64,000 nucleotides of DNA from Myxococcales bacterium. GTDB lineage: Bacteria > Myxococcota_A > Polyangia > Polyangiales > DASUME01. The stretch covers positions 4,352,001-4,416,000 of the forward strand of contig JASGJH010000001.1 in assembly GCA_047601445.1 (NCBI GenBank). Direction: 5' to 3'. The notes beneath the pieces were generated by a model. It was not told where the DNA came from and did not search any database. It saw only the letters and a list, made by a program, of their open reading frames with translations. Shown here in pieces: positions 7,327 through 48,943 of the stretch. A program made the translations under genes and the position numbers. Each line of letters opens with the position of its first letter. Within the stretch, counting starts at the first letter, position 1.

Positions 7327-7403
7327 CATCGATCGTCGACGGCTGGGCCGACCACCATGCGGAGCAGGATTCCAAAGAGACGCCCCGTGGAGAACAACCG
7401 AGG

Positions 7404-10400: not shown

Positions 10401-13313
10401 CGGGGACCACCAATGGCTCATCGAGCCCGTCACGAACAGGGTCGCCGCGGCGCGCGCCCCAAGCTTGCCAGCGAGCCCGACTGCCAGCTGGCTGAACGCC
10501 TGCGCTCGCGCCAACTCCCCGCGCCGCACCAGCACGACACAGAAGTTCGCGTAGGCCGGCGCGGCCAGCGCTGTGCTGCCGTGTTTCACCACCGATCGCA
10601 GCAGCCACAGCGCGAGCACGGTCCAGCGCTTCGGATCGCTGCGGAAGAACGGCGGCAAGAGCTCGAGTAGCAACGTTTGCAACGCCACCTGTTCAGGGTC
10701 TTGTGCGGGCGGGACATTCGCGAGCTCCTCGATGTTAAGGCCTGCAAGCACTCCCTCGACCTCAGCCGTGACCTGCGCGGCCGTCAGCTCGGGATCGGCC
10801 TCGAATAGCTCGAGGCCGAACAGGCGCAGCGCCTCGCTGCCCGCCTGAATGGCGCGCGGAAAGTCGAGCAGCATCGTATAGCCGAACACACGCACCTCGT
10901 AGAGCTGCGCCTTCTCCAGGCGCGTACGCGCGCTCGAGAGTGCGTGGTGCAGCAGCTCTTCTGCCTCCTCCTTCGCGCCGCTGACGAAGGCGAGCTGAGC
11001 GGCGTCGCGGTGCAGGCCGATGGCCAGCTCGTGTGCGATAGAAAAGCCGGCGGGTCCGAGCAGCGCGAGCGCACGCCGCAGGTAGACAATCGCCACCTCG
11101 TAGGCCGCACCCGTCTTGGCCCGCTCGGCTGCCCTGGCGTTGAGTTCAGCGAGCTCGAGCCGCTCGTCCGTGAGTGTGAGCAGGCTCTCGGCGCGGTTGA
11201 GTTGCTCGACCACCTCGAACAACGGAAGGGGCGTGCGCTCGCGCAGGGCCTCGCCGATGGCACGATGCAGCGAGAGTCTGCGGGCCTCGGGGAGGAGCTC
11301 GTAGGCTGCCTGCTGCACGCGATCGTGCACGAAGCGGTACGCCGGGCGCTCACGGTCCGCGTCGCGCCCGAGCGTGATCAGGTGCTCTCGGGCCGCGAAC
11401 CACAACGCCTGCGCCATCTCCGGCTCGCTCTGCGCTGCCACCCGCGCCACGAGCTCGAGCTCGAACCGGCTACCGATGCAGGCGGCCACCGTCAGGCCGA
11501 GGGCGGTCGCCTCGGGCAGCCGTCGAATGGACTGCACGAGCAGGTCGATGACGCTGTCGGGGGCAGGCAACGCGGCGATGCGCGCAAGATCCCAGGTCCA
11601 GGTGTTGGCGCCCGCGTCGAACGTCAAGCAATCCGCCCCATGCAGCATGCGCAGGAAGCGCGTGGCGAACAGCGGGTTCCCAGTGGTCTTGTGCAGCACG
11701 AGCTCTGCCAGGGGACGACAGCGCTCAGGTGGAGCACGCAGTACGTCACCGAGCATCTCGACGAAGGCGTCCACCCCGAGCGGGGCGAGGGAGATGGTGA
11801 CGACGTGACCTCCAGCGCCTCGGATCTCTTCCACCACGCAGGCCGCCGGGTGATCTCCCGCTGCCTCTTCGCTGCGCCAGGAGACGATGATCAGCAGGTT
11901 GCCGAGCTCGGCTCCGCTGAGCAAAGCGCCCAAGAGCTTGAGCGAAGCCGCGTCGGCCCACTGCAGATCATCGAAGAACAGCACGAGCGGTCGCCCCGGC
12001 TGCGCGAGGGCGCGCAGAAAGCTGGCCAGCGCGTGTTGGGTGCGGTTCTCCGCCTCGACCGGCCCCACCGGCAGGAGCGGAGGCTGCACACCGAAAAGTG
12101 CCTCGAGGCGTGGCACGATCGAAGTGAGCACACCGGCATGGGGACCGACCATCTTTCTGACCCGGTCGCTCAACTCAGAAACGGTCTGCCCGGCAGGATC
12201 GAGCCGCTCCCGCGTGAGCTCGTCAAGGGCCTGCGCAAGCACTGCGAAGGGAACGTGACGTAGCAGCGGCTGACACTTCCCTGCCGCAAAAAGCGCTTCC
12301 TCGGCAATCCGCCCGCGCAGATCCTCGACCAGCGCGGTCTTTCCCACGCCGGCCCATCCTTGCACGACCGCCAGCGTGTTCCCACCCGCGCGCACTGACT
12401 CGTACGCGGTGGCGAGCTCCGCCCGCTCTCGCTCGCGGCCGTAGAGGGACTGAGCCAGCGAGAGCTCGCGGCGGTCGAGACGGGCCAGCTCGAACGTGCC
12501 GAGGCTTCCGTCGCGCAGCCAGCGCCGCTGCGCCTCTGCGAGGTCGGCTTCCAGCGCGTCGGCCGTTTGGTAGCGCCACTCTGGCATCTTCGCGAGCAGC
12601 TTCATCACGATGTCGGAGAGCAGCTGCGGCAGGCCGGGTCGAATCGTCGCCGGCAGCGCCGGCAGGCGTGCGAGATGTCCGTGCAAGACCTCGAGCGGAT
12701 CGGTCGATGGAAATGGGGGAGCGCCCGTCAGCATTTGATAGAAGGTCGCTCCAAGCGAATACAAGTCTGCGCGCTGATCGACCCAGCGATTCGTGCGCCC
12801 TGTCTGCTCGGGGGCCACGTACGGAAGAGTCGCTTCCAGGCGGCCCGTCCCGCGAGGTAGCTCCGCGAGCCCCGTGACCACGGTCGCGAGTTCGAAGTCG
12901 ACTAGCGTCACACCACCGTGGTCGTCGAGCACGAAGTTGGCCGGGCTCACGTCGCGATGGATGATGTTTTGACGGTGGACGCCCGCAACCGCGGCCGCCA
13001 TCTGCACGGCCAGCCGCAAGAAGGCCGCCACGTCCAGGGGTGCACCGCGCAGCGTCTCCTCGATGTCCCGCGTTCCAACGTCCTCGAGAACCAACGCCAG
13101 GCACCCGTCGATCAGCTCCAGGTTGTGGGGCCGTACGACACCGGGCGCTACCAGGCGCGAGAGCAGGGCGTGCTCGTGACGCAAGCGTGAAGCGCTCTCC
13201 CCGTCGGCGCGATCGGTCCGCGCCATCTTGACGACGAACGGCTCTCCATAGCGTTCGCCGCGAAACACTGCATAGCGCGCTCCGAGGTGGATCTGCCTCA
13301 GTCCAGTCCACAT
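7404..13313 (-). CDS. Multidomain Ser/Thr kinase-AAA ATPase-GAF-PAS-histidine kinase-receiver protein
   Basis: HRDVSPAN, YVAPEQTGR, Walker A GWAGVGKT, FFDDLQWAD, GNPLF, GAF ending AAISLENARL, AHDFNNLL, GTGLGL and a receiver domain. Likely start is ATG 13313, because the longer ORF overlaps the divergent gene. Confidence 0.93.
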   Translation of the reverse strand: MWTGLRQIHLGARYAVFRGERYGEPFVVKMARTDRADGESASRLRHEHALLSRLVAPGVVRPHNLELIDGCLALVLEDVGTRDIEETLRGAPLDVAAFLRLAVQMAAAVAGVHRQNIIHRDVSPANFVLDDHGGVTLVDFELATVVTGLAELPRGTGRLEATLPYVAPEQTGRTNRWVDQRADLYSLGATFYQMLTGAPPFPSTDPLEVLHGHLARLPALPATIRPGLPQLLSDIVMKLLAKMPEWRYQTADALEADLAEAQRRWLRDGSLGTFELARLDRRELSLAQSLYGRERERAELATAYESVRAGGNTLAVVQGWAGVGKTALVEDLRGRIAEEALFAAGKCQPLLRHVPFAVLAQALDELTRERLDPAGQTVSELSDRVRKMVGPHAGVLTSIVPRLEALFGVQPPLLPVGPVEAENRTQHALASFLRALAQPGRPLVLFFDDLQWADAASLKLLGALLSGAELGNLLIIVSWRSEEAAGDHPAACVVEEIRGAGGHVVTISLAPLGVDAFVEMLGDVLRAPPERCRPLAELVLHKTTGNPLFATRFLRMLHGADCLTFDAGANTWTWDLARIAALPAPDSVIDLLVQSIRRLPEATALGLTVAACIGSRFELELVARVAAQSEPEMAQALWFAAREHLITLGRDADRERPAYRFVHDRVQQAAYELLPEARRLSLHRAIGEALRERTPLPLFEVVEQLNRAESLLTLTDERLELAELNARAAERAKTGAAYEVAIVYLRRALALLGPAGFSIAHELAIGLHRDAAQLAFVSGAKEEAEELLHHALSSARTRLEKAQLYEVRVFGYTMLLDFPRAIQAGSEALRLFGLELFEADPELTAAQVTAEVEGVLAGLNIEELANVPPAQDPEQVALQTLLLELLPPFFRSDPKRWTVLALWLLRSVVKHGSTALAAPAYANFCVVLVRRGELARAQAFSQLAVGLAGKLGARAAATLFVTGSMSHWWSPLRSVIPELHVIAAKGIESGELMWAWYSELKVVRTLLLAGDELRSTAAVLEPLVGRPGQRGWTSQLKLYQQAIRCLQGATPQRGRFEEETESAIVRPGSHDRYALGEYATTRLQLAFVFGDVDGALGWLEQGAQHEDVLACLDIRPVFATYAALSLVAAAERGSPAERATRLARSHVFEAQLSRWAKHCPENYRHKHELLRAELERVEGGSPEPHFHAAIEAAAQAGALHEQALAQELYARFCLSQGHPHVAAQWFRGALDTWSHYGASAKVKQLEEEVVLLSLPAARRWTTPITSGEGVSFDALTLFKAAETLSSEVVLDKLLEKLMHICVEAAGAQRAALLVERDGQLRLEARLDVERGLLEVSGDHQGNGRILVSEAIVLHTLRSGEDVVLANAAEAGAFTADPYVRARASKSIVSLPVRHRDRITAVLFLENDLSSDAFTKKRLEMLRLLVVQAAISLENARLYDSLRGSEALLRDFLEGMPVGVYVVNPRGEITLANRKAIEITGAPHDPTPTLAQATMAHHIVVAGTNEAYPMERLPASRALQGETVMVDDIAVARRDRTVPIAAWATPIHGQDGAVRYAIVAFQDISAQREMETDRARLEAQLHQAQRLESIGRLSGGIAHDFNNLLTPILIYSELAIGALPEKSPIRAQIAQVRDAAESAASLTRQLLAFGRQQVLEPRELDLNQELLSFERMFRRLVREDIEVRLDLDRAIKLVLADHAQMQRVLMNLGTNAADAMPSSGTITFETRQGTLLASDVDQPNDEPPVRRAAVVLRVHDTGQGMDTITLDKLFDPFFTTKPPGKGTGLGLPTVYGIVKQHGGEMSVHSEPGRGTTFEITLPCVTDGTPLAQRSLSAGRDAVARSGGGETVLVVDDNDAVRNVVREVLEAEGYHVLAFGSSLEALDVARKLGGSLDLLVTDIVMPGMGGRELYERLAPELPHAAVLFISGYTGEYVPNEADTQAGVGRLQKPISREALCEKARALLDARSGSKG

Positions 13314-13488
13314 GACGGTTCTATGATCCCATGCCTGGCCCGCCCGGGCAGGCTCAGTCGCCAACGACTCCCGAGGCGAGACCGCAAAGCAGCGAGAACT
13401 AGTGGCGCGAGCGCGCGCCGAGCGTGAGTTTGCGAGAGAAAGGGGCGCTGCCGTGTGCGATAGTGAGCGATGAACCGATCGGAAACCT

Positions 13489-13926
13489 ATGGCCGAGATC
13501 ACCATCGTTGATGAGTTCGACGCTCTGCTGCTCCGCTACACCGTGCCGCAGGGAAGGTCCGGGCTCGCGGGCGCGGCTCTCGAGGGAGCGCAGTTGCCGG
13601 GCGCGCAGCTCGCAGGCGCAGACCTCAGCGGTGCAGATCTCTACTGGGCGTCCCTGTTTCGAGCCGATCTGCGCGGCGCCAAGCTCGACAACGCTGTGCT
13701 CTGCGGTGCGGACCTCAAGCAGGCCAATCTCGAAGGAGCGTCCCTCAAGAACGCGGACTTGGGTCTTGATCGACTCAATGGCTCTACCTCGCTCGAGGGA
13801 GCCAATCTTCGCGGCACGGACCTCCGCTGGACCAAGCTCACGGGAGCCCAATACGACGAAGCAACCCAGTTCCCTGCAGGGTTCGACCCCGCGCAAGCGG
13901 GCATGCGTCGCACGCGGAGGAGCTGA
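13489..13926 (+). CDS. Pentapeptide repeat protein
   Basis: Tandem A(D/N)Lxx repeats ([20 protein letters not shown]) and C-terminal [13 protein letters not shown]. Confidence 0.92.
13819..13926 (+). repeat. Copy 1 of a 108-bp direct repeat (3' end of the pentapeptide gene)
   Basis: Aligns without gaps to 20122-20229; 13 mismatches by manual count. Confidence 0.92.
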
Positions 13927-22184: not shown

Positions 22185-22197
22185 CAAGGAGCGGCCT

Positions 22198-23040
22198 GTG
22201 AACATTTACATTTGGGATGACGACACCACCGCAACCTCCACGCCCGAAGCTGGCTCGCTCAAAGCCACGCCCAACAGCGCGATGGCGACTGTCGCAGGCA
22301 CGATCGCCCGCCCAGGAGGGAGCGCAGCGTTCCTCGACATCCACTACCACGGAAAGGAAGGCATCTCCTCGCTGCCCTCGGCCACTGGTGCGGTCGCACG
22401 CCCGGGAGGCAGCGCGGCGTTCCTCGACATCCACTACCACGGAAAGGAAGGCATCTCCTCGCTGCCTGCGGCTGCGGCACGCCCAGAGGCCGGCGCAGCA
22501 GTCTCTGCCAGCAGCCTGGGCCGCGCAGCGGTCGCTGCACCGATACGCCCGGGAGGCAGCGCGGCGTTCCTCGACATCCACTACCACGGAAAGGAAGGCA
22601 TCTCCTCGCTGCCCTCGGCCACTGGTGCGGTCGCACGCCCGGGAGGCAGCGCGGCGTTCCTCGACATCCACTACCACGGAAAGGAAGGCATCTCCTCGCT
22701 GCCTGCGGCTACGGCACGCCCAGAGGCCGGCGCAGCAGTCTCTGCCAGCAGCCTGGGCCGCGCAGCGGTCGCTGCACCGACACGCCCGGGAGGCAGCGCG
22801 GCGTTCCTCGACATCCACTACCACGGAAAGGAAGGCATCTCCTCGCTGCCCTCGGCCACTGGTGCGGTCGCACGCCCGGGAGGCAGCGCGGCGTTCCTCG
22901 ACATCCACTACCACGGAAAGGAAGGCATCTCCTCGCTGCCTGCGGCTACGGCACGCCCAGAGGCCGGCGCGGACACCGGTGAGCCGTCCTCCGGCTCGCT
23001 ACACATCGGCGCGTCCCTCGACATTCATTTCGTGGGTTGA
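22198..23040 (+). CDS. Putative multi-core RiPP precursor peptide (280 aa, six identical cassettes)
   Basis: AAGGAG RBS then GTG; six copies of RPGGSAAFLDIHYHGKEGISSLP plus terminal ASLDIHFVG; its stop overlaps the start of the next radical SAM gene. Confidence 0.85.
   Translation: MNIYIWDDDTTATSTPEAGSLKATPNSAMATVAGTIARPGGSAAFLDIHYHGKEGISSLPSATGAVARPGGSAAFLDIHYHGKEGISSLPAAAARPEAGAAVSASSLGRAAVAAPIRPGGSAAFLDIHYHGKEGISSLPSATGAVARPGGSAAFLDIHYHGKEGISSLPAATARPEAGAAVSASSLGRAAVAAPTRPGGSAAFLDIHYHGKEGISSLPSATGAVARPGGSAAFLDIHYHGKEGISSLPAATARPEAGADTGEPSSGSLHIGASLDIHFVG
22309..22971 (+). repeat. Hierarchical tandem repeat: 237-bp unit, about 2.8 copies, each with two 69-bp cassettes 90 bp apart
   Basis: Cassette starts at 22309, 22399, 22546, 22636, 22783 and 22873. 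Confidence 0.97.
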
Positions 23041-25046
23041 TCGTGGCGGCGCCGACGATTGCGCTCGTCAGCATGCCGTTCAATGTCACCGTCATGCCGC
23101 CGATCGGGCTTGGAACCCTTAGCGCAATATTGCGTGAGGCTGGCCTGCCCTGCACGACATATCACCAGAACCTCGAGCTGCTACCGTGGCTTGGGGTGCC
23201 TCTCAATGAGGCTTCGGAGATCTTTGATGAGATCAGCTATCTGTGGGACTTCTTGCCTGGAGAATGGCTATTCTCGCCGCAGGTCTCGGCTGAACAGGAC
23301 GCCGCATACCTGCGGTCGCTCGACGAGGACGCCGGCGTGCGCCCGCAGCTCATCGAAGTTCTTGCCCAGCTGCGCAGGATCGCTCCGCATTTCATCGCGC
23401 GCTGCGCAAGCCAGATCGCTGACGCTGGGCATGACATCGTCGGCTTCACGAGCTCATTCATGCAGACCCAGCCGAGCCTCGCAGTGGCCCGGCACCTCAA
23501 GCAGCTGCGGCCGGAAGTAACGATCCTCTTTGGCGGCTCCAATGCCTTTGGGACCATGGGCCGCGCCGTGCTCGAATACTGCGATGCCATCGATGTGGTC
23601 GCCCACGGTGAAGCCGACCGCCTAATCGTCCCACTTGTGCACGCCTTGCGCGAAGGCACCAGCCTGCGGCAGCTACAAGGCATCTCCTATCGCGACGTCT
23701 CGGGCATCGTCGACCAGTCCGTCGACTCGACGCGCGTGGCGATGGACGACCTACCGGTCCCTGATTTCGATGACTACTTTTGCACTCTCGATCGGCTACG
23801 GAGAGACCATCGCCAGCCGCTGGATCTCCCGCGCTTCGTGCCCATCGAGACCGCACGCGGATGCTGGTGGGGCGAACGATCGCATTGCACCTTCTGCGGC
23901 CTCAACGCTGACCGCATGCGGTTCCGATCCAAATCGCCCGAGCGTGCGCTGCATGACTTCCGCGACCTCTACCGTCGATACGGGGTCGGCAACTTTTTCG
24001 CTGTCGACAACATCATTGATCACAAGTATTTCGACACTGTCCTCGCGAGTCTCGCCGAACAGCGTGAGCGCTTCTTCATCCACTACGAGATCAAGGCAAA
24101 CCTCTCGCGCAAGCAGGTCGAGTCGCTGTACGCAGCAGGGGTTCACAAGATCCAGCCGGGAATCGAGAGCCTGTCCACACCGGTGCTCAAGCTCATGCGC
24201 AAGGGTATCACTGCCCTGCAGAACATCCAGACGCTCCGCTGGCTCACGGAGCACGGCCTGCGGACCTCCTGGTACATGCTGTATGGCTTCCCCGGCGAGA
24301 ATCTAGCCGCGTACAAGGAGGTCGCGAATCTCCTGCCGCGCCTCACGCATATCGTACCGCCAAATGAGCTAGCGCCGGTCTACATCGAGCGCTTCAGCCC
24401 ATACCAGATGAGACCAGACCAGTACGGGATCCGGCTGACCGGTCCGGCGCGGTGGTATCGGCATGCCTTCCCCGGCATCGGTGACGATCAGCTCGCCGAG
24501 TTAGCCTATCGCTTTGAATACGAGGAGCCGGGCCGTGATCCCGCGCTCACCCGCTTCATCGAGCACGAGCTGCGGCCATTGCTGACCGCGTGGCAACGGC
24601 GCTACGCCGCTGAAGGGCCCACACTTGGCGTCATCCACGGCCCCGAAGAGTCGCTGCTGGTGCTAGGCCGCCTCACAAATCCGATTCGGGTGTTGCGGCT
24701 GGACGCACCCGTCGCTGCGGTGCTGCGGGCAGCGGATCAAATCGTCTCCGCAACGACGCTCGACAAACTCGGCGACGGCCCGGTCGGCGCAGTTAACGGT
24801 CCGATGCTTGACGAGGCTGACTACCATGTCGCGGTGCGGCGTCTCGCCGGCCGGGGCTTGTCCCTGGAAACGTCGACGCCAACGCCACTAGACCTGCGAG
24901 GCGCGGCACTGGTAGCGAAACTTGAGACACTAGGGCTTGTGTTGCAAGAGGGTAACCGAGTGCTGTCGCTTCCAATCAATTTGTCCCGCGTCGTCGAGCG
25001 CCAGAACGCGGCCGCGGTGCCGTTGGTGTCCAGTGCTGCCTACTAG
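23037..25046 (+). CDS. RiPP maturation B12-dependent radical SAM C-methyltransferase (TIGR03975/PoyB-PoyC-like)
   Basis: LVSMPF...PPIGLGTL, GEWLFS, VGFTSSFMQ, FGGSN, GEAD, ETARGCWWGERSHCTFCGLN (Cx7Cx2C), VDNI, IQPGIESL, ERFSP. Confidence 0.93.
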   Translation: MIVAAPTIALVSMPFNVTVMPPIGLGTLSAILREAGLPCTTYHQNLELLPWLGVPLNEASEIFDEISYLWDFLPGEWLFSPQVSAEQDAAYLRSLDEDAGVRPQLIEVLAQLRRIAPHFIARCASQIADAGHDIVGFTSSFMQTQPSLAVARHLKQLRPEVTILFGGSNAFGTMGRAVLEYCDAIDVVAHGEADRLIVPLVHALREGTSLRQLQGISYRDVSGIVDQSVDSTRVAMDDLPVPDFDDYFCTLDRLRRDHRQPLDLPRFVPIETARGCWWGERSHCTFCGLNADRMRFRSKSPERALHDFRDLYRRYGVGNFFAVDNIIDHKYFDTVLASLAEQRERFFIHYEIKANLSRKQVESLYAAGVHKIQPGIESLSTPVLKLMRKGITALQNIQTLRWLTEHGLRTSWYMLYGFPGENLAAYKEVANLLPRLTHIVPPNELAPVYIERFSPYQMRPDQYGIRLTGPARWYRHAFPGIGDDQLAELAYRFEYEEPGRDPALTRFIEHELRPLLTAWQRRYAAEGPTLGVIHGPEESLLVLGRLTNPIRVLRLDAPVAAVLRAADQIVSATTLDKLGDGPVGAVNGPMLDEADYHVAVRRLAGRGLSLETSTPTPLDLRGAALVAKLETLGLVLQEGNRVLSLPINLSRVVERQNAAAVPLVSSAAY

Positions 25047-27006
25047 TGCCCATAGCCTGCGGGTCGCGCTGGTCGAGATGCCGTTCGGGCCCGTGGCATG
25101 GCCGTCGATAGGCACCTCGGTACTCAAGCCGCAGCTGGCGCGGCGCGGCCACCGCGCCGAAGTTGTGTACCTCAACCAACTCATGCTCGAGCTCCTTGGG
25201 CCGCCGGACTCGGACACGGTTGGGCGATACCAGGCTATCTCAGACGCGTTCGGTGTTCATCTCGGCGAGTGGGTATTCGCCCGTGCCGCGTTCCCCGACT
25301 GCCGAGACCAGGCGGCACTCGATGACGAGTACCTCTCGCGGCTACGGACCGGCGGTTTCGATGCGGCGACGTTGTCGGCAGCCCTCGACCTTCGCGACCG
25401 CGCTGATGAGTTTCTGACCCGATGCCTTGCCGAAGTGCCGTGGTCCGACCTCGACGTAGTCGGCTTTGCCAACTCCTACTCTCAGCTCAACGCATCGCTA
25501 GCGCTCGCGCGACTGCTGAGCATGAGCTTCCCCGCGCTGCGCCTCATCATCGGCGGCTGCGGCTGCGCCGACGTCATGGGTGTGGCCACGTTGCGCGTAT
25601 GCGAGCACCTGTGCGCCGCAGTGCTGGGCGAAGGCGACGAGATCATCGCCGACCTCGCGGAGGCGGTCGTCAGCAACGACGAGGCGCGACTGCGCGCGAT
25701 ACCGGGCATCGCGTTTCGAAGTCACACCGGCAAGATTGAGCTCGGTGCACCTCAACGCCGCGTCACGGATCTCGACGCGCTCCCGGTGCCCGACTATAGC
25801 GATTACAGCCGCAATCTTGCGCCCGCACTCCGAACGTTCCTGCCTTTCTACATTCCCGTCGAGGCATCGCGCGGCTGCTGGTGGGGTGCGAAGCACCATT
25901 GCACATTTTGCGGACTCAACCCGCAGCGCATCTCCTACGCGCGTAAGGAACCGGCCCGTTTTCTCGCCGAGATCGCGACGCTTACGGCAACCTACCAGCC
26001 GCGCCGCTTTATGGCAGTCGACAACATCATGCCGCACGACTACCACACCGCGGTCATCCCAGAGCTGACTGAAAGCTCTGGAGGAGCCGAGTTCTTCTTC
26101 GAAGTGAAAGCCAACTTTCGCCGCGAGCAGCTCGAGGCTTTCACCCGCGCCAACGTGCGACAGATCCAACCCGGCATCGAAAGCCTGCGCACCCCGGTGC
26201 TGAAGCTGATGGAAAAGGGCACGACGGCGATCGCCAACGTCTACACGCTGCGTTTGTGCGAAGACCTCGGTGTGCGTGCCCACTGGTCTATCCTCTTCGG
26301 CTTCGCTGGCGAGACCCTCGACGACTACCGTGTCTCGAGTGAGCTCACCAGGCGCATTATGCATCTGCGGCCGCCGCTGGCGCTGGTGCCGGTTGAAGTC
26401 GAGCGCTTCTCACCGATGTACCGACGACCCGCCGAGCATGGGCTCACCGGTCTACGCCCCTCGACTTGGTACTACTTCTGTCACCCCGTCTCAGCGGAGG
26501 TGCTGGCAGACTTATCCTATCGCTTCGTCGCCGACTTCGTCGGCCGTCCGGCAGAGCTATCAAGCTCCATTACTACGATGCTGGAGCCGCTCGTAGAGCG
26601 TTGGCGAGCAAGCTACGGCGACGGTGCCCAGGCCCTGTGGACGCCGGCCGGGCGGAACCACGAGGTACGGCGCCGGGTCGGTGGCGAGGAATGGCGTTAC
26701 ATTCTCGACACGGTGTGTACGGCGCTGCTCGATGAACTGGACGAGCCGCGCGGCCTACGCGCCCTTTTCCCCCAAGCCGCGACCACCCTTCACGAACCGT
26801 ATCTCGATCCCGAGTTTCTGCGTACGGCCTCGTCAGCGATGTACGAGCGCGAGGTCACTCTGCGCGCCTCTTCGAAGGTTGACGCATACCAGCAGCTCCT
26901 ACGTCACGGACTGATCGTCCAGGAAAGCGGCCACGCGGTTAGTGTCGTTTGCCGGCGGAAGCCCTCTGCGCGGCGCGAGCTGCGCGTGCTCGCCGCAGAA
27001 CCGTAA
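25033..27006 (+). CDS. Second RiPP maturation B12-dependent radical SAM C-methyltransferase
   Basis: LVEMPF..WPSIG, GEWVFA, EASRGCWWGAKHHCTFCGLN, VDNI, IQPGIESL, ERFSP. Probable GTG start at 25033 overlaps the previous gene. Confidence 0.92.
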   Translation: MLPTSAHSLRVALVEMPFGPVAWPSIGTSVLKPQLARRGHRAEVVYLNQLMLELLGPPDSDTVGRYQAISDAFGVHLGEWVFARAAFPDCRDQAALDDEYLSRLRTGGFDAATLSAALDLRDRADEFLTRCLAEVPWSDLDVVGFANSYSQLNASLALARLLSMSFPALRLIIGGCGCADVMGVATLRVCEHLCAAVLGEGDEIIADLAEAVVSNDEARLRAIPGIAFRSHTGKIELGAPQRRVTDLDALPVPDYSDYSRNLAPALRTFLPFYIPVEASRGCWWGAKHHCTFCGLNPQRISYARKEPARFLAEIATLTATYQPRRFMAVDNIMPHDYHTAVIPELTESSGGAEFFFEVKANFRREQLEAFTRANVRQIQPGIESLRTPVLKLMEKGTTAIANVYTLRLCEDLGVRAHWSILFGFAGETLDDYRVSSELTRRIMHLRPPLALVPVEVERFSPMYRRPAEHGLTGLRPSTWYYFCHPVSAEVLADLSYRFVADFVGRPAELSSSITTMLEPLVERWRASYGDGAQALWTPAGRNHEVRRRVGGEEWRYILDTVCTALLDELDEPRGLRALFPQAATTLHEPYLDPEFLRTASSAMYEREVTLRASSKVDAYQQLLRHGLIVQESGHAVSVVCRRKPSARRELRVLAAEP

Positions 27007-27020: not shown

Positions 27021-28079
27021 ATGGAGTCCGCAGTCCTTCTCACCACGATGCGCTGCAACATTCGCTGCGAGCACTGCTCGGTCGATTCCCACCCACACAG
27101 ACAGGAGCGCCTCGATCAGGCGCGCGCCCTCTCGCTCGTCGACGGCCTCAGCCGCATTCCTGGCCTCCGCTACATCGACGTAACCGGCGGCGAACCCATG
27201 CTCCACGCTGACGACGTCATTGCCATCGCTCGCGCAGCCCGCGCCCGTGGCAAGGCCGTTCGCCTGGTCAGCAACGGGTTTTGGGCCCACACGGTCGAGC
27301 GCGCCCGGGACACGCTGGTTGCTCTCAAGAATGCCGGGGTAACGTCAGTCGGACTGTCCGTCGACGAGTGGCACCTGCCCTTCATTCCACCGTCGACGAT
27401 TCACAACTACCTCGTTGCCTGCCGCGACGTTGGTCTCCTCCCCCTCCTCTCGTGCGTAGTCGCCGCCAGCGTGGGCGACGGAGATTGGCCGGCGAAGGTG
27501 ATCGAACTGCTTGCCCGTTACGGGATCGAACGCAGTTCCTGCGTCGAGCTGTACGCCTGGAGCCAGGGGCGCGAGTCCGACGCCGACGAGCGGGATGCGC
27601 GGGCCGGCGTAGTCCTCATCAACTGGCAGTTCCTTACGGGCGAGGGCCGCGCCCGCGACCTCGGTGTCCCGTCCCAGCCCATCAATGTTGCGCCAGACGA
27701 GCCGTGCCGCATGGCCGGCCGCCTCCCAACCATCGACGAGGCCGGTCGGCTCTTCCCCTGCTGCTCGCCATGGATTTCGCGCAAAGCCCACGCCCTCGCC
27801 GTCGTTACCGGCGACGATGTGCCGAGCGCCGTCGCCGCCATGCAACGCGAGCCCCTCGTCCAGGTCATCCATCGCATCGGTCCGCGCGCCATGCTCGAAG
27901 AGCTTCGTCGTCGAGGTTGGGCCCTCCCACACAACCAATCCGGCATTTGCAACCAGTGCGGCGTCATGCTCGACGCCGTCCCGCTCGCCGTCCTTCGCGA
28001 GGTCGCCGCCGAGCTCCTCCACGCCCGCGTCACGGTTGCCCTTGGCCTCCAGCCACGCACCAACCCGCCCCGCGCCTAA
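27021..28079 (+). CDS. Radical SAM protein, YydG/EpeE-like peptide epimerase candidate
   Basis: AGGAGG RBS; CNIRCEHC, TGGEP, SNGFWA, LSVDEWH, FPCCSP and C-terminal ICNQC. Radical SAM assignment is secure; epimerase function is inferred. Confidence 0.85.
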   Translation: MESAVLLTTMRCNIRCEHCSVDSHPHRQERLDQARALSLVDGLSRIPGLRYIDVTGGEPMLHADDVIAIARAARARGKAVRLVSNGFWAHTVERARDTLVALKNAGVTSVGLSVDEWHLPFIPPSTIHNYLVACRDVGLLPLLSCVVAASVGDGDWPAKVIELLARYGIERSSCVELYAWSQGRESDADERDARAGVVLINWQFLTGEGRARDLGVPSQPINVAPDEPCRMAGRLPTIDEAGRLFPCCSPWISRKAHALAVVTGDDVPSAVAAMQREPLVQVIHRIGPRAMLEELRRRGWALPHNQSGICNQCGVMLDAVPLAVLREVAAELLHARVTVALGLQPRTNPPRA

Positions 28080-28163: not shown

Positions 28164-30617
28164 CTAGGCCCTGCGCGCTGTCGCAATCCATTGCGTGGCG
28201 TGCGGGGTCGAACCGTCGGTACACGTTGAGGCCAGCTCCTCGCGGACGCGGTAGCCACGGCGGAGCCATCGGATACTGCCGTGAAGGTATTGTCGCACGA
28301 GCGTGTGAAGAGGCTCTTCAGCCCGAGGTCGACTTCGCCTCAGCTCCACCTGCTGAAAGCCAGCGCTTTCGAGCATGCTGCGGAGAGCCCCGCTAGTCAT
28401 CCCCATCGTCTTGGTCTTCACAGACTCGCCGCAGGCTTCATAAATGGCAGCATAGGCAGGGCTGTCTTGTGTCCAGACCCCTACGACCAGCCTACCCGAT
28501 GGCTCGAGAAGGTCGTGGAGCCGTGCAAGCGCCGTCCCGGCGTGCTCGCCAAGGTGTTGGATCAGGTGCTGCGCAAAGATCACGTCGTAGCGCTGCGCGG
28601 CTTGGACCTTGAGGACGTCGTTGACAGCGTACTCAATTTTGCGAGCGCCCCTGACCTCGTGCGCAACTCGAATGGCGTCGCGACTCGAATCGAATCCGTG
28701 GATTGCAGCGGAGCGGAATTTGTCAGCTGCGACGCGTGCAACGATGCCGGAACCGCAGCCCGCGTCCAAGATATATCGGGGCTTGGAGAGGTCGGAGCAA
28801 GCGTTCAACAGCTCCCTAGCGCACGGCAGGAACAGCGACTGTACCAGGCCGGCCTCCAGGTTGCGCTCCTTCACGAGCATGCTCGCGCGGTCGCGGTGTG
28901 CGCGTTGGCGCAGCACCGTGGCGAGCGCTTCGTTTCCCGCCAGTAGTTTGGCCGTTCCTTTCAGTTGGCTTTTCGCCTGCGCACCCTTAAGCAGAGACGA
29001 GAGTGCTCGAGGCTCGGTCCTATCGCCGTTGCTCAGCCTGACTTCGACGTGGTAGTCGTCCCAGGTGAAAAGCGACACGCGAAACGGCTGCTTCTTCTCG
29101 TGGCCGCGAAGAGCACGTCGCAGGAGCTGATAGCCCGAAGAACTCCTACGCCAGTACGTGACTTCGTCGACATCATCGGGTGCGTCCGCGATCCAGAGCT
29201 TGAGCTCGCGGCAGTAAAGTCTTGCCCCATTGTGCGAGCAATCGTCGACTACCCCTCCAGCCTCGACCACGATTCGGAACGAACCAGCGGGAGCAGGAGG
29301 AATTGCCTTGTGAGCCGCCCCGGTAATTGCCTCAGCCGCTTCAGGTCGCAGGCGTTCCGACTCGAGGTCGGCCGCCCCAGCCTGGCGTTGAAGCAGCGCG
29401 CTATGCAGCTTCGGAGAATGCTTCGCAAGAGGGCTCTCACCGCCCGTGCGGCAAACTACGCGGTGAAAGGCACGCGGTATCCCTTCACCGCGGAACGTAA
29501 CGAGATAGAGCGGCCCCTCCCGTCGTGTCTGGTCGAGGAGCACCACGTGATCGGGCTCTCCCTGCTCATAGCGAAACCGGCCCCCGCTGACGCGAAGCAC
29601 CCTCCAGGCGAGGAGGCGATGCAGCGGTTGCGTCCGAAAGGACATGGGGTTGGGGGAGCGTCCACGCCAGGTCACATCGATGCCTGGCCGCAGGTTACTC
29701 TCGAGAAACTCATCCAGATCCTTCCACGACGTCTTGAGCAACCCGTACTTCTCGAAAACCAACGCGGAGCGGTCGAGGCTATGGTGTTCGTTGCCTCCTG
29801 CCTCGGCCACCTTCCATTCGAGATCCACAATCGTTGTTCTCACCGGCTCGAGAATCGAGCAGGCGTGGTCAAGGAAGGGCCCGTGATCGAAGTTGACCAA
29901 CGTCGCCCGCAAGAAGTCCACGGCGCCCCCGTCTCCATCGCCACAGATCAACAGCTTTGTATGCTTGTCCAAGGTCTCGAGCGGATGCTGCGCCAACGCG
30001 TCCATCTGCCAGTAGGACAGGCGTGGCAGCGTGGGCAAGGTGCGCTCGATTCCGAATCCGAGCGCGAGCACCACCACTTCAGGCGGTTTCGGATACTTGC
30101 CGCCAGTGAGGCCCACGAGCTCGACTTTGCCGTCCCGTGTCAGGCGAAAGTCGGTGATCTGCCGCGGCATCGCGCCCATGAGTGCTTCGTACTGCGTGAC
30201 AATCTGCGTGCGTACGTCGTGGGCGCTTCCCGCGAACCAGTTCAGGATCGGCAGGTTCGCCGAAGCCATCGTACTATGCTCCGCGGGCCATTCGACGATG
30301 CGAGGATGCAGGAATCGATGGTGGCAACCTAGCTGCAGGTGCATCGGCTCAGCCGCGCGATCGAACACCTCGACCTTGGCACCAAGCACGCGAAGAGCAG
30401 CAGCACAGGTCAACCCACCAGCACCGGATCCAATGACCCATGCGCGCTTGCCCTCGACTAACTTGGCTTCATGGAGTGCCCAGACCAGATTGAGAGCGCG
30501 GCATTGCTGCGCCGCGACATTGATGCGCGGGCGGCGCTCGCTAAAGAGGACAAAGACGTTGTCACATCCATCCACCGAGGCTTCCTGCCTGAGCCGCTCG
30601 CTGTCGCTGTCCATCAT
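28164..30617 (-). CDS. FAD/NAD(P)-binding oxidoreductase fused to a pYEATS-like domain and a class I SAM methyltransferase
   Basis: QQCRALNL...VIGSGAGGLTCA (Rossmann), second site ICGDGDGG; middle LWIADAPDDVDEVTY...FRVSLFTWDDYHVEVRL; C-terminal ILDAGCGSG...GFDSS. Confidence 0.82.
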   Translation of the reverse strand: MMDSDSERLRQEASVDGCDNVFVLFSERRPRINVAAQQCRALNLVWALHEAKLVEGKRAWVIGSGAGGLTCAAALRVLGAKVEVFDRAAEPMHLQLGCHHRFLHPRIVEWPAEHSTMASANLPILNWFAGSAHDVRTQIVTQYEALMGAMPRQITDFRLTRDGKVELVGLTGGKYPKPPEVVVLALGFGIERTLPTLPRLSYWQMDALAQHPLETLDKHTKLLICGDGDGGAVDFLRATLVNFDHGPFLDHACSILEPVRTTIVDLEWKVAEAGGNEHHSLDRSALVFEKYGLLKTSWKDLDEFLESNLRPGIDVTWRGRSPNPMSFRTQPLHRLLAWRVLRVSGGRFRYEQGEPDHVVLLDQTRREGPLYLVTFRGEGIPRAFHRVVCRTGGESPLAKHSPKLHSALLQRQAGAADLESERLRPEAAEAITGAAHKAIPPAPAGSFRIVVEAGGVVDDCSHNGARLYCRELKLWIADAPDDVDEVTYWRRSSSGYQLLRRALRGHEKKQPFRVSLFTWDDYHVEVRLSNGDRTEPRALSSLLKGAQAKSQLKGTAKLLAGNEALATVLRQRAHRDRASMLVKERNLEAGLVQSLFLPCARELLNACSDLSKPRYILDAGCGSGIVARVAADKFRSAAIHGFDSSRDAIRVAHEVRGARKIEYAVNDVLKVQAAQRYDVIFAQHLIQHLGEHAGTALARLHDLLEPSGRLVVGVWTQDSPAYAAIYEACGESVKTKTMGMTSGALRSMLESAGFQQVELRRSRPRAEEPLHTLVRQYLHGSIRWLRRGYRVREELASTCTDGSTPHATQWIATARRA

Positions 30618-30968
30618 GCCATCGACCTCTTTGCCAGTTCCCTACATTGATTGGCACGCTCATGTCCTTACTTGTTTGAGCGCGAGCAAGAAATGCCTAA
30701 GCCGCGGCATTGCCTCTAGGACGCCGTGGTTCCCCGCGAGGAGTCGCTGCGCACAACGCCTCTCCGCGTTCCGAGAGCTGCTTCGCCAACGGACGCCCTC
30801 ATGAGCTCGGACCAGTCGGAAGCCAGCGCGAATCAGCGGCAGGGTCGCGAATAGTCAATCATTCGCCGTCGACTGGTCCGCCGTCGAATGATCCAGCGGC
30901 GAGTTTCGGTCGAGGGGAATTCAGCGCCGTGGCCCGCGTATGCCACCGCACTAGCCCTGGAGATCTGC

Positions 30969-32327
30969 GTGCCGCTCCCACGTGTGACCGCGAAACAGAT
31001 CCGCTACCTGGCTCTCGAAGGCGGTGGCGGCAAGGGAAACGCGTTCGCGGGTGCGCTACGCGCGCTGGCCGATCCGCGCGTAGGTGAAGACGGGCAGGGA
31101 ATCCTGCGCTTCGAGCGCTATCGCCCCGTGTCGTTGAAGGGCTTTTCTGGTGCATCGGCGGGCGCCATCACCAGCTGCATGCTGTCCTGTGGTTTCGATG
31201 GCGAAGAAATCATCGCCATCATGCGCGGACAGAACTTCGACGACTTCTTCGATCCGCTGCGCCCCGGCTACGTGCCTGCGGTCGGACGCTTTGTTGAGAA
31301 GCCCAAGGAGTCTGTGAACCGCGAGCTCCTCGCGCTCGTCAGCTCCCTCTGCAAGCTCCAGACTGGCATCGTGTCGATGCGTGATCTGGCACGAATCTTC
31401 GGCGAGCTCGGACGCTTCGAGCTGCAACGGTTCGGCTCAATCATCGGCGGGCTACTCGCGGTCTTCCCGACCCTTGCAAAGCAGCTCCCTGCCGCCGCAC
31501 GCGTGATCGGCGGAAACGTGGAGGCTGCCGGCCTCTCGCTCGTGCAGGACTTCGGCATCTTTCCGGGCGAGGCGGCGCGACGCTTCATTCACAAATGGGT
31601 CTCCATCGGCGCTGTGCGCGCCACCAGTCCTCAATGGATGGCTCAGATTCCAGGCTGGGATCACGTTGCCGGGGACAGTGTCGAGGCCAGGCGACAACGC
31701 ATTCACTTGTTGTCCGAACACTGGGGCCGCGATGGCAGCAAGTTTCCGATCAATCACGCGCTTTCGGGGATGACATTCGAGGAGCACCAGCGCACCTTCG
31801 GCGTCAAGCTCGCCGTGACAGGAACAGAGCTCGAGACGCTCAAGACACACGTCTTCAGCGCGAACACGACCCCCCAATTCCTGGTCGAGGATGCGGTTCG
31901 CATCTCGATGAGCTTGCCTGGGGTCTTCAAGCCCTATGTGATCCGCGGCGCAGACGCAGAGCGCGCATCGCGCGGAGCGATCGCATCGTTGGAAGGAGTG
32001 TGGGTCGACGGAGGCCTACTCAACAACCTACCGCTCCGAGTGTTCGACAACGAGCCCGGCGACAATCCGAAGACGCTCGGCTTGCGCTTGGGCCTCGAGG
32101 AGCGCACTCGCATCGACACGTTGGGCGACCTGTTGTCGGTCTGGCCGGTGAGCTTGGGCTTCTTGGGATCCGGCGAGTCACAAACCTCGTTCACGCTCGA
32201 CAACTACGATGCATCGGTGCTGCTCGATCCGTCACCGCTTGGACTGCTGGACTTCTCTGCATCGGACAGCGTCTTGGCCGACGTCCACCGCTCGGCGTTC
32301 AACGCAACACTGAGCTATTTCCGTTGA
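30969..32327 (+). CDS. Patatin-like phospholipase
   Basis: LEGGGGKG, GASAG nucleophile elbow, AVRISMSLP, VDGG. GGAG then GTG at 30969 is the likely start. Confidence 0.92.
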   Translation: MPLPRVTAKQIRYLALEGGGGKGNAFAGALRALADPRVGEDGQGILRFERYRPVSLKGFSGASAGAITSCMLSCGFDGEEIIAIMRGQNFDDFFDPLRPGYVPAVGRFVEKPKESVNRELLALVSSLCKLQTGIVSMRDLARIFGELGRFELQRFGSIIGGLLAVFPTLAKQLPAAARVIGGNVEAAGLSLVQDFGIFPGEAARRFIHKWVSIGAVRATSPQWMAQIPGWDHVAGDSVEARRQRIHLLSEHWGRDGSKFPINHALSGMTFEEHQRTFGVKLAVTGTELETLKTHVFSANTTPQFLVEDAVRISMSLPGVFKPYVIRGADAERASRGAIASLEGVWVDGGLLNNLPLRVFDNEPGDNPKTLGLRLGLEERTRIDTLGDLLSVWPVSLGFLGSGESQTSFTLDNYDASVLLDPSPLGLLDFSASDSVLADVHRSAFNATLSYFR

Positions 32328-32338
32328 AGGAGAGATCT

Positions 32339-35200
32339 ATGCACGAGTTATTTCGCTACATGTCGATGCGTCCTCCCGTTCAGCCCGACGATGATGCCGT
32401 CGTCTTGCTGCAACCGTCGCAACCGCTGCGCGCCAAGCTCGTCGCGGCGCGTTCCGATTCCAGGGCAGCCGTTCACAAGGTCGCGTCCGAGCATTTGCAA
32501 TCAAGCGCGGCGGCCCTTTCGGTGGACAGATTGGAGTCCGGTCGCGTGCTCGAACCGTTGGCGAAGCAGTTCATCGAAGCTGGTCAGCTTCGAGCTCAGG
32601 AACAGCTTGAAGCTGACCTCAAGAAGGCCCTTGGCGATCAGTGGAGCACCCACGTCACAGCACCAGGCTTTGCTCTCGAACAGCAACGTCTTGCAGACAC
32701 CTTGATCGCCGCCAAATTGTGCTCGACGGGCAGCTTGTGCGACCTCGACCTGCTCACTGCGCTCGCTTGCATCTACGAAGCGGCCGCGCGTCTGGCCGCG
32801 GGTGGTACGGCACACGTGCCCAGTATCGCTGTGATCGGAGACCTCGCTGCGGCGGCCACGCCCTCATCCCCCACCCGCGCGCAAGAGGAGTCCGCCGTCC
32901 CCCCTGCACCAAAGCCGGAGCTGGTCAGCCTGGAACGCGACGCGAACGATTTGCAGACCGCGCTTGACCGCTTGGGCAACTTGCCACTCCCAGACCTCGT
33001 AAAACTTCCTCACCGGCAGCTCAAGGCGCAGAGCGCAGTCACGAGCGAGCCGGGCTGCCGCACTTCGCCGGAATCCACGGCTCCCGTGCTGGATGTTCAG
33101 CGCGCCGCCGTCGATGCGTCGACGCCTTGGGAAGTGCGTTCGGAGTTCATCGACGACCTGCCGCGCTACGCGGCCACCCTCGCACGAAAGAGCCTTGCGG
33201 ACTCCAGTCGCGGCGACGTCGCAAGCCTCGCGGAGCTACTGCAGCGCGAGCAGGCCACGGTGCAGGCCAAGATTCGTTCACTGCGAGGTGACGATCCGAT
33301 GGCGGAGGCCGTGGTTTCACTCGGCAACAAGTTCTTCAAAGCCGGGACGCTCGGCAAGACGAGAGCGCCCAAAACGTCGGGCTTGCCTCAGGGCAGTGGA
33401 TCCCTTCGACCGGTCGGGGTCGCTGATCTGCTCGTCGTGCGCCAGCAGCTGACTTCCTACCAAGGCGGCGATGTCGCGCACATCGAGAATATCCTCAAGT
33501 CCGAAGAGCTGCACCGTGAGACCGAACGGCGCGAGAAGAGCGAGCAGTCGGTGTTGACGGAGACCGACGAGCTACGCGAAGAGGAACGTGACACCCAGAC
33601 CACCGAGCGCTTCTCACTGCAGCGCGAGACCGCCACCACCCTGGAGACCGATCTGTCGGTCAACGCAGGACTGGCCGTGACAGCGCGCTACGGGACCATG
33701 GTCGAGGTCCAAGCCAACGCCGGGTTCTCCTATCAGACCTCCAGCAGCGACTCGGTTCGCCAGTCGTCGGCGTACGGGAAGGACGTCGTGACCCGCGCGG
33801 CGACCAAGGTCTCCCGGCGTATGCGTGAGCTGCGAACCACCACCACCTCGATCGAGTTCCTGGAGCGCAACAAGCACGGCTTCCAGAACTCCGCGCCTGG
33901 CGCAACGCACATCAGCGGCGTCTACCAATGGGTCGACAAAGTGTCGGAGGCACAGGTCTACAACTACGGGAAGCGCATGATGTTTGATGTGATGCTCCCC
34001 GAGCCGGCCGCGTTCTTCGTCGCCGCACAGCAACAGCAGAGGACGGAAGGCGACAAGCTCGTCAAGCCGCCCACGTTCACGGCCAAGCCCAGCGACATCA
34101 CGGAGAGCAACTATCAGAGCCTGGCGCAGAGCTACGACGCCATCGGCATCGAGCCACCGCCACCGCTCTATTTGTTGTTGGCGAAGGCGATTGAGTTCAA
34201 CACCAATGGCGCGCAGGGCGCCACCTACGTGACCAAGGCCGATGCCATCCCTGTTACGGAGGGCTACGAGGCCATCGGCTGGGCGATCCGATGCTTATCG
34301 GGGGGCGCCGGCTCGAACAATGCGTACGTCTTCGTGGGGCGCGAGGCTTTCGACTCGAATGCACGACAAGCGACGAGTTGGACCCTGGCGGGGGAGACCT
34401 CTCAGGTTCCCATCGCGGTTGCAGGACTGAACCTGCTGCTGTTTGCTGCCACGATCGAGGTGCTGATTCGCCGCACCGAGCGCGCGATGGCCGTCTGGCG
34501 CCAGAAGACCCACGCCGCGATCGCCCAGGCCTACACCGCCAAGAAGGCCGAGTACGAGCGCGCACTTGCGTCGGCTGCAGCCGGGAGCACAGTGCAGATC
34601 AGCGGCCGCAATCCTGGCGCGAACAAGCGCCTCGTTCGGACGGAGCTGCGCAAGATGTGCTTGGCGCAGCTCACGGCACAGCAGTTCGACGCGTTCGGCG
34701 CAATCGAAACGTCCAGCCAAGGCTACCCCGAGGCGAACCTGGTCCAGAGCGAGCTGCAAGGCGAATACATTCGCTTCTTCGAGCAGGCATTCGAATGGGA
34801 CCAGCTGATGTACTTCTTCTACCCCTACTACTGGGGGATCAAAGAAGGTTGGCTGACCACCTCTCTGCTCGAGGACGTCGATCCGGAGTTCGGCGACTTC
34901 CTGCGTGCTGGCGAGGCGCGTGCCGTGTTTCCGGTCCGACCTGGATTCGAGAAGGCCGTGCTCCACTACCTCGACACCGGCGAGATTTGGAACGGCGGCA
35001 ACCCGCCCAAGATCACGAGCCGGATGTACGTACCGATTCTCGCCGAGCTCGAAGCCGCCAATGGTCCCGCGGCTGCGGAGAAGGCGCACGGTGACCCATG
35101 GGAAGTTCGCCTACCGACGACTCTCGTGCACTTGCGCGCGGACGATCGTCTTCCCAAGTGGAAGAAGACGAACGGCGTGTGGGGAGAAGATCTGACGTAG
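32339..35200 (+). CDS. Large uncharacterised protein (953 aa)
   Basis: AAGGAG RBS and ATG 11 bp after the patatin stop; blocks such as VGVADLLVVRQQL...VAHIENIL, YQWVDK, NYGKR, FFEQAFEW...FYPYYW. The ORF-track start at 31595 is a spurious overlap. Confidence 0.85.
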   Translation: MHELFRYMSMRPPVQPDDDAVVLLQPSQPLRAKLVAARSDSRAAVHKVASEHLQSSAAALSVDRLESGRVLEPLAKQFIEAGQLRAQEQLEADLKKALGDQWSTHVTAPGFALEQQRLADTLIAAKLCSTGSLCDLDLLTALACIYEAAARLAAGGTAHVPSIAVIGDLAAAATPSSPTRAQEESAVPPAPKPELVSLERDANDLQTALDRLGNLPLPDLVKLPHRQLKAQSAVTSEPGCRTSPESTAPVLDVQRAAVDASTPWEVRSEFIDDLPRYAATLARKSLADSSRGDVASLAELLQREQATVQAKIRSLRGDDPMAEAVVSLGNKFFKAGTLGKTRAPKTSGLPQGSGSLRPVGVADLLVVRQQLTSYQGGDVAHIENILKSEELHRETERREKSEQSVLTETDELREEERDTQTTERFSLQRETATTLETDLSVNAGLAVTARYGTMVEVQANAGFSYQTSSSDSVRQSSAYGKDVVTRAATKVSRRMRELRTTTTSIEFLERNKHGFQNSAPGATHISGVYQWVDKVSEAQVYNYGKRMMFDVMLPEPAAFFVAAQQQQRTEGDKLVKPPTFTAKPSDITESNYQSLAQSYDAIGIEPPPPLYLLLAKAIEFNTNGAQGATYVTKADAIPVTEGYEAIGWAIRCLSGGAGSNNAYVFVGREAFDSNARQATSWTLAGETSQVPIAVAGLNLLLFAATIEVLIRRTERAMAVWRQKTHAAIAQAYTAKKAEYERALASAAAGSTVQISGRNPGANKRLVRTELRKMCLAQLTAQQFDAFGAIETSSQGYPEANLVQSELQGEYIRFFEQAFEWDQLMYFFYPYYWGIKEGWLTTSLLEDVDPEFGDFLRAGEARAVFPVRPGFEKAVLHYLDTGEIWNGGNPPKITSRMYVPILAELEAANGPAAAEKAHGDPWEVRLPTTLVHLRADDRLPKWKKTNGVWGEDLT

Positions 35201-48941: not shown

Positions 48942-48943
48942 GG

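Follow-up and report, generated by a model that had tools for sequence, protein, structure and literature searches.

Repeated decamers in the precursor of a five-gene radical SAM operon: a likely, apparently undescribed family of modified peptides

What is the purpose of a bacterial gene that carries a tandem array of identical cassettes and stands between the genes of a protease and of radical SAM enzymes? The question was raised by a 280-residue open reading frame in a 64,000-nucleotide stretch of a Myxococcales genome, which as a whole is called the window here. We propose, with a probability of about 0.55 for the statement as a whole, that the frame encodes a multi-core RiPP precursor in which a repeated decamer is epimerised and C-methylated and which is cut by a Glu-specific protease. 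The gene cluster likely makes a family of modified peptides which is apparently undescribed, formed by known enzyme classes in a new combination.

The array, its reading frame and its conserved motif

In the assembly sequence, the precursor contains six identical 23-residue cassettes, RPGGSAAFLDIHYHGKEGISSLP, which start at residues 38, 68, 117, 147, 196 and 226 and are separated by 7, 26, 7, 26 and 7 residues (SATGAVA three times, a 26-residue linker twice). PEAG is found at residues 16, 96, 175 and 254, and the protein begins with (V/M)NIYIW and ends with ASLDIHFVG. The first-pass annotation had described six invariant cassettes, alternating 7- and 26-residue spacers, a 237-bp unit and four PEAG words, and all of these were recovered by recounting and by TRF (period 237, 2.8 copies, 98% matches, no indels). 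Its statement that amino acid changes fall only in spacers and that cassette 1 differs at synonymous sites alone was borne out by cassette comparison: three synonymous sites distinguish cassette 1 from the others, one further synonymous difference in the last Pro codon separates odd from even cassettes, and the replacement changes are confined to the long spacer (AAAA/AATA, API/APT). No difference separates the AB units 2 and 3 in the 188 bp that were compared, while unit 1 departs from unit 2 at 5 sites out of 237, namely the three synonymous ones in cassette 1 and two replacements in the long spacer. Five differences within the array of the window alone are not enough to demonstrate selection.

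The frame is fixed by the spacing of AAGGAG, a Shine-Dalgarno-like sequence 6 nt upstream of the GTG start, by the Met starts which homologous precursor genes have at the position aligned with this GTG, and by the synonymous spread in homologs. The decamer AAFLDIHYHG occurs in 25 copies at 5 loci in 20 distinct DNA sequences, with variation at all 10 third codon positions; since the copies were chosen by protein sequence, the lack of replacement changes is a matter of construction, which does not apply to the synonymous spread. The alternative frames +22217 and −22162 are open, yet they are not conserved in homologs. Within the host genome, a single 9.5-Mb contig, the array motif does not recur elsewhere except for one unrelated LDIHF, and no paralogs of the precursor, the protease or the epimerase were found.

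Table 1 Positions of the precursor features and the operon genes, counted from the first nucleotide of the window
Feature	Position	Strand	Basis
S1 (chymotrypsin-fold) glutamyl-endopeptidase-like protease, 420 aa	20922..22184	+	PDB match and invariant columns
Shine-Dalgarno-like AAGGAG	22186..22191	+	sequence
Repeat precursor, 280 aa	22198..23040	+	ORF and 21 homologs
N-terminal degenerate copy MNIYIW	22198..22215	+	family form M-x-I-H-x-[HY]-G; strand in model
PEAG 1, predicted Glu/Ala cleavage site after N-terminal strand	22243..22254	+	E[ASG] in 20/22 N-terminal regions
Cassette 1, contains decamer AAFLDIHYHG	22309..22377	+	repeat count
Cassette 2	22399..22467	+	repeat count
PEAG 2, long spacer	22483..22494	+	spacer survey
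Cassette 3	22546..22614	+	repeat count
Cassette 4	22636..22704	+	repeat count
PEAG 3, long spacer	22720..22731	+	spacer survey
Cassette 5	22783..22851	+	repeat count
Cassette 6	22873..22941	+	repeat count
PEAG 4	22957..22968	+	repeat count
C-terminal degenerate copy LDIHFVG, abuts stop	23017..23037	+	family form GLHIGDAALLDIHYHG-stop
B12-dependent radical SAM C-methyltransferase 1 (TIGR03975)	23037..25046	+	start may be GTG at 23043
B12-dependent radical SAM C-methyltransferase 2 (TIGR03975)	25033..27006	+	471.8 bits
EpeE(YydG)-like radical SAM, predicted peptide epimerase	27021..28079	+	PDB match YydG

Protein searches provided 21 homologs (12 of 12 rows of one search and 15 of 17 of another, P0022 and P0023 being dropped as unrelated repeats), so that 22 precursors with 115 motif copies were available together with that of the window. 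Each homologous precursor has 2–8 motif copies and spacers of 9–53 residues. Among the 103 His-type copies, entropy was below 1 bit at G-5, A-2, F-1, L0, D, I, H, Y, H and G and mostly 2–3.4 bits in the flanks; the Ile and the first His were present in 103 of 103, and the Ile, found at position 3 in all 13 rows of the first alignment, in 115 of 115 copies overall. The flanks of homologous precursors have diverged, with a mean identity of 0.2–0.4 in most. That homologous precursors should keep the DIH motif and not the spacers had been posed beforehand as a test, and this is what the copies and their entropies revealed. Judged by these alignments, the conserved unit is the decamer GxAAF[LIV]DI[HN]Y(H)G and not the 23-mer, the KEGISSLP portion of which is peculiar to this genome. 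Conservation thus favours the initial proposal that LDIH[Y/F] is a core or recognition motif, and the cassette gives way to the decamer as its unit.

The degenerate terminal copies, noticed earlier as echoes of the core pattern, proved to be a feature of the precursor family: 15 of the 22 end with LDIHxx[GE] directly before the stop codon, mostly as GLHIGDAALLDIHYHG, and most begin with M-x-I-H-x-[HY]-G. Four precursors are of a DINYG type, with 12 copies of GG[ST]AAFLDINYGK in the same layout and without His, and HYH is therefore probably not family-wide, which weakens the earlier suggestion that this motif could bind metal. A recent two-step duplication had also been suggested. Recent duplication is likely, as units 2 and 3 are identical. 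The short/long alternation, however, is repeated independently and with other spacer sequences in the metagenome locus L009 and in the homologous precursor P0004, which makes the two-spacer design old and only the near-identity in the window recent. One and the same precursor was seen with two short-long units in L009 (1374-2045) and with one in P0014, and the assembly of L010/L011 breaks inside the array; either natural copy-number variation or assembly collapse may account for these differences.

Neither NCBIfam (June 2026) nor Pfam holds a family model for the precursor, and NCBIfam gave no match for it (E 0.001) or for four homologs (E 10). The Pfam matches CBM_56 and DUF3188 were set aside as repeat-summed noise, no single stretch of which passes.

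The operon and its enzymes

The precursor gene stands second in a row of five closely packed genes on the same strand, which encode the protease, the precursor, methyltransferase 1, methyltransferase 2 and the epimerase. The same five genes in the same order were found in a MAG of Pseudophaeobacter, in the isolates Rhodobacter maris JA276 and Yoonia sp. R78084 and on one contig from a metagenome; of four metagenome stretches, one repeats the locus of Pseudophaeobacter, and another two contain parts of the L009 sequence, which is divided at the array. The motif stands beside TIGR03975 genes, near which a search for it had been proposed, and in all four other loci the precursor adjoins the methyltransferase pair. 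According to ORF translations, the flanking genes differ among the five loci, and no transporter or immunity gene forms part of the conserved unit. Gene order is retained with unrelated flanks, and the precursor is very probably the substrate of the enzymes of its operon. Indirect evidence extends this linkage: seven further precursors are apparently co-located with a methyltransferase-1 ortholog and six of these with an epimerase ortholog, judged by longest contigs of exactly equal length, which, with the DNA-verified loci included, gives nine and eight pairings, respectively, two of them verified. In L009 only, a retropepsin-like aspartyl protease ORF (7229-8281; DTG and DSG recognized by eye) directly follows the epimerase. 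An epimerase 81% identical to that of the window, P0029, lies on an 11-kb contig of another sample.

Searching 185,579 species genomes with the pattern AF[LIVM/F]DIHYHG yielded four matched stretches, three real and one (L006) a chance match that was set aside; a DINYG-type DNA pattern gave three single matches among species genomes, each of which reads AFFDINYG and lies in a context unrelated to the operon. The precursor profile found nothing in 40 relatives of the host, including nine of the same genus, and in the Yoonia family it matched 2 of 401 genomes, both with loci already known. No epimerase ortholog was detected in 400 genomes of the host's phylum (seven weak matches, best E 1e-28). 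The protein search listed 29 epimerase orthologs at E <1e-87, the next row being at 1e-23, and these form one clade with the window enzyme (support 95, 30 proteins, quick tree). Methyltransferase 1 has about 30 relatives with at least 45% identity. The system was absent from the viral contigs and plasmids searched, and Rfam had no matches in the window and the four loci. Such a rare and scattered occurrence would be in keeping with a mobile cassette. A same-genus genome (L023) contains an unrelated TIGR03975-like fragment (E 4.7e-96) adjoining a short subtilase-start-like ORF.

Other genes of the window were also recorded. A fusion protein of 817 aa, in which a FAD/NAD-binding Rossmann domain at the N-terminus is joined to a class I methyltransferase domain at the C-terminus (28164-30617, minus strand), is convergent on the operon and was not seen beside the other loci. 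At 30888-35200 (plus strand) a patatin-like gene precedes a long ORF of up to 1201 aa, for which neither Pfam nor NCBIfam had a match. Five large co-oriented ORFs of 782, 583, 1529, 1109 and 1080 aa lie at 44792-60005 and a 2033-aa Ser/Thr kinase-AAA-GAF-PAS-histidine kinase-receiver hybrid at 7404-13505, both on the minus strand.

Both methyltransferases pass the TIGR03975 cut-off of 281.85 bits (546.7 bits for methyltransferase 1 and 471.8 for methyltransferase 2), share 37% identity and contain the Cx7Cx2C cluster motif. The fold comparison, which covers methyltransferase 1 only, was based on a model with pLDDT 93, residues 4-531 of which resemble TsrM, CysS, TokK and OxsB (Z 19.7–21.2); the agreement with TsrM (Z 21.2, rmsd 3.8, 420 aligned residues) comprises the B12-binding and radical SAM fold. 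The C-terminal beta3-alpha3 domain (three strands, three helices) is similar to DUF5825 (TM 0.52, feature score 0.91), which has been suggested to be an RRE (bioRxiv 2024.01.23.576971); sequence comparison with Pfam, NCBIfam and the PDB gave no RRE/PqqD match for it. The Cx7Cx2C enzymes PoyC and MpcB beta-methylate Val and Ile (PMC11285071; bioRxiv 2024.01.23.576971). The host genome carries cobS and three cobalamin riboswitches.

The best PDB match of the predicted epimerase is YydG (E 4.9e-18) and its best family is TIGR04078 (YydG/EpeE), in which it reaches 102 bits, below the equivalog cut-off of 300. CxxxCxxC, the auxiliary-cluster cysteines and the position of the H-donor cysteine are all present: FPCCSP aligns with YPCCSP of YydG and GICNQCG with SICGVCG, and C229, C247, C248, C310 and C313 are kept in 28–29 of the 29 sequences aligned, a set made up of the window enzyme plus 28 orthologs out of 29. 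We take the second Cys of the CC pair to correspond to EpeE Cys223, on the basis of a 25-residue tag offset and the EpeE numbering. In EpeE, Cys223 serves as the H donor when Val4 and Ile12 are inverted (PMC13012085).

The best PDB match of the protease is the Bacillus glutamyl endopeptidase 1p3c (E 3.3e-19). A pro-region of ~200 aa precedes a maturation site predicted between Glu201 and Ala202, and when the five proteases were aligned to mature 1p3c, the mature chain started directly after Glu, at a Glu-Ala bond, in all of them. The triad His253/Asp302/Ser375 and the S1 residues Thr370 and His393, equivalents of Thr190 and His213, are kept across loci. His213 and Thr190 are mandatory S1 elements of glutamyl endopeptidases, and since they are also found in Gln-specific viral enzymes (PMC5508998), their presence is not exclusive to Glu enzymes, which counts against the proposed cleavage. 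With the V8/BIGEP glutamyl endopeptidases the window protease shares the triad, His213, Thr190, the mature N-terminus x-V/I-x-x-D-D-R and a long propeptide; it differs in having Glu at P1 of the maturation site, self-activation of this kind being rare in the V8/BIGEP group (PMC5508998), and in belonging to a RiPP-type operon. No signal peptide was seen by eye in five sequences. The N-terminus reached 22.2 bits with TIGR04509 (cut-off 34), a weak likeness to NHLP leaders that recurs in 4 of 5 loci and is absent from L009/L011, and a profile comparison with two NHLP-like precursors returned 7.5% probability (E 0.0047). Being below the family cut-off, this resemblance is a lead only.

The precursors show a matching pattern of Glu residues. 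All 27 long spacers contain Glu, compared with 28 of 66 short ones, and 25 of the 27 have a PEAG-like word. E[ASG] is present in 20 of 22 N-terminal regions, the exceptions being P0001 and P0013, the latter without an N-terminal strand. Across the precursors Glu is followed by A, S or G in 108 of 161 cases (41% expected), and Asp outside the motif, the comparison set, in 44 of 135. The retained His213/Thr190 equivalents, the Glu-Ala start in five of five proteases and the enrichment of Glu in long spacers together suggest that PEAG-like sites are likely cleaved by the Glu-type protease encoded upstream, which may itself be a self-activating Glu-specific zymogen with an activation site of PEAG-like form.

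Proposed maturation and competing readings

We infer the action of the enzymes on the precursor, the altered residues, the cut sites, the product and its role as follows. The decamer AAFLDIHYHG would be the modified core; it is taken as product rather than leader because the last copy reaches the stop codon in 15 of 22 precursors. The EpeE-like enzyme would invert a C-alpha in the decamer, and the PoyB/PoyC-type pair would add C-methyl groups. The invariant Ile is the most likely site of epimerisation and its C-beta the first candidate for methylation (Leu/Val, Ala, Asp and His being possible too), as Ile is present in every motif copy, EpeE epimerises Val and Ile, and PoyC and MpcB methylate the same residues. 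The protease would activate itself by cutting between Glu and Ala and then cut the precursor after the Glu of [P/A]E[A/G/S], behind the N-terminal strand and in the long spacers, and in this genome also between Glu and Gly of KEG after each cassette. The pieces released would carry one to four amphipathic cores with A-L-I-Y on one face and F-D-H-H on the other. The additional KEG cut would produce single-core pieces of 30–36 residues here, and R. maris and Yoonia would form multi-core pieces; such long pieces, rather than small peptides, are a point against the core model. The score of the epimerase far below the TIGR04078 cut-off and the conserved unit without a transporter or immunity gene in five loci are further ones.

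The precursor also lacks a recognisable leader, although the C-terminal domains of the methyltransferases may bind one. This fits a different arrangement, in which the decamer would be an internal, repeated docking strand for the RRE-like domain of the methyltransferase and the Ala/Gly/Ser/Val/Pro-rich spacers the modified cores, as in proteusins. Methyltransferase 1 does end in a DUF5825-like domain of the kind suggested to be an RRE (bioRxiv 2024.01.23.576971), motif copies, both termini included, bracket every spacer, and the spacers are rich in residues which related enzymes modify (18% A, 13% G, 11% S, 8% L, 8% P and 7% V across precursors), which also weighs against decamers as cores. 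The spacers, however, vary from 9 to 53 residues with little common sequence between or within most precursors, ten consecutive motif positions are nearly invariant, and the sequence of the C-terminal domain hit no RRE/PqqD model in the databases named above, so that we consider docking unlikely.

The decamers may instead remain together in a matured repeat protein, or in multi-core segments, and stack as a parallel beta-sheet, a D-x-H-x-H face of which would bind Zn, Cu or Ni, with the degenerate terminal strands as caps and Asn ladders in the DINYG type. Structure predictors tend to stack identical repeats, and the AlphaFold2 model which makes strands of the six decamers and both terminal copies (strand blocks at pLDDT about 67–79) is weak (mean pLDDT 55, pTM 0.54, from 22 sequences). 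In fold it comes closest to parallel solenoids (SufBD-like, Z 8.6, rmsd 4.4, 193 aligned residues; LRR), yet for repeats Z values below about 13 carry no significance, Foldseek gave no match at E<=0.001, and the atlas contained no look-alikes by features (TM at most 0.34). The alternating pattern resembles that of the designed Zn-binding amyloid peptides IHIHIQI/IHIHIYI (PMC10008563) and 38 of 66 short spacers are without Glu; on the other hand, a D-residue would disrupt a regular strand and both His are missing in 4 of 22 precursors. Stacking, which on this model-based evidence is improbable, could go together with a modified decamer, but it leaves the DINYG type aside. The fuller combination, a leaderless repeat protein with epimerised and C-methylated decamers, trimmed by a self-activating Glu protease with a leader-like docking segment of its own and stacked with D-x-H-x-H metal ladders, is quite doubtful.

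That the array is an artefact of the assembly, or an ordinary low-complexity ORF which has undergone selfish tandem expansion and is unlinked to the enzymes, could be suspected from window copies that are 98% alike, from the array splitting the L010/L011 assembly and from one unit in P0014 versus two in L009. As regards the existence of the array, this is contradicted by homologs with 2–8 copies and diverged flanks, including a complete genome and a type-strain assembly, by units that differ at diagnostic sites in the window, by the host genome being one contig and by the conserved operon, and we regard it as highly improbable.

Relation to known systems and meaning

The modified-decamer reading places the system among multi-core RiPPs, with a repeated conserved motif, variable linkers and co-encoded maturases and protease. 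Like the proteusins (polytheonamide, Poy), it combines two Cx7Cx2C B12 C-methyltransferases with a radical SAM epimerase and with a protease dedicated to the pathway (PMC11285071, PMC8326336, PMC10885120). Proteusin precursors, however, have an NHLP/Nif11 leader, which the window precursor lacks, the weak NHLP-like segment being on the protease instead (4 of 5 loci); they contain one long core and not a repeated decamer, and their protease is of the C1A and not the S1 class. The PoyD-type epimerase has a single cluster, an RRE at the C-terminus and, in the available part of PMC8326336, no homology to EpeE, whereas the window epimerase resembles EpeE and contains auxiliary-cluster cysteines. 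An EpeE-type epimerase within a proteusin-like cluster was observed in L036 (6700-13074), where two NHLP-like precursors with Val/Ala/Gly-rich cores are followed by an EpeE-like radical SAM protein (TIGR04078, 77 bits) outside the clade of the window enzyme; two ORFs there are TIGR03975-like by eye.

The epipeptides (EpeX/EpeE, YydF/YydG) provide the closest solved relative of the epimerase, with the CC pair and CxxC kept. The window enzyme nevertheless falls below the family cut-off, forms its own clade and is paired with methyltransferases, the precursor has 120–320 residues with repeats instead of 49, and no short EpeX, membrane protease or ABC immunity transporter of the epipeptide type was found in the five loci. 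In the clavusporins (mpc), a Cx7Cx2C enzyme beta-methylates Val, Ile, Pro and Thr of an alternating amphipathic core (bioRxiv 2024.01.23.576971). In contrast to the window operon, the MpcA/B/C/P/T system, as described in the accessible part of that report, has a precursor of 39 aa with a single 13-mer core, only one methyltransferase, a separate DUF5825 protein (MpcC), an S9 peptidase and a transporter, and no epimerase. WprA/WprB/WprP likewise has a short repeated motif modified in each copy and a serine protease beside a radical SAM enzyme, but with cyclophane chemistry, three WPR motifs and an S9 protease (PMC12957482). Judged by gene content and sequence, the system would operate in the manner of proteusin or clavusporin pathways and belongs to neither of these, nor to the epipeptides.

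No literature was found on the DIHYHG motif or on a RiPP with Rhodobacter maris, nor any published description of the precursor or its system, subscription literature being mostly outside the search. The papers listed for TIGR03975 were environmental surveys, and those listed for B12 radical SAM enzymes, epimerases and multi-core precursors were reviews or dealt with other systems. The available text of PMC12957482 (2026) names only S8 and S9 serine proteases in RiPP maturation, so that the S1 class is absent from it, and the words 'glutamyl', 'trypsin-like' and 'chymotrypsin' do not occur in the accessible text of a review of RiPP proteases (PMC10885120). In the literature cited here, methyltransferases of the PoyB/C type do not occur together with an EpeE-type epimerase and a glutamyl endopeptidase of the S1 class. 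If the stacked metal-ladder reading were true, the product would be nature's equivalent of the amyloid peptides designed to bind metal. Enzymes able to introduce D- and C-methyl residues into a tag of ten residues would be of practical use. The family is small and widely scattered, with about 22 precursors, 30 epimerase and 30 methyltransferase-1 orthologs. Its precursor without a known leader poses sharply the question of how the enzymes find their substrate, and since the named isolates Rhodobacter maris JA276 and Yoonia sp. R78084 hold the full operon, the product and its chemistry are directly testable.
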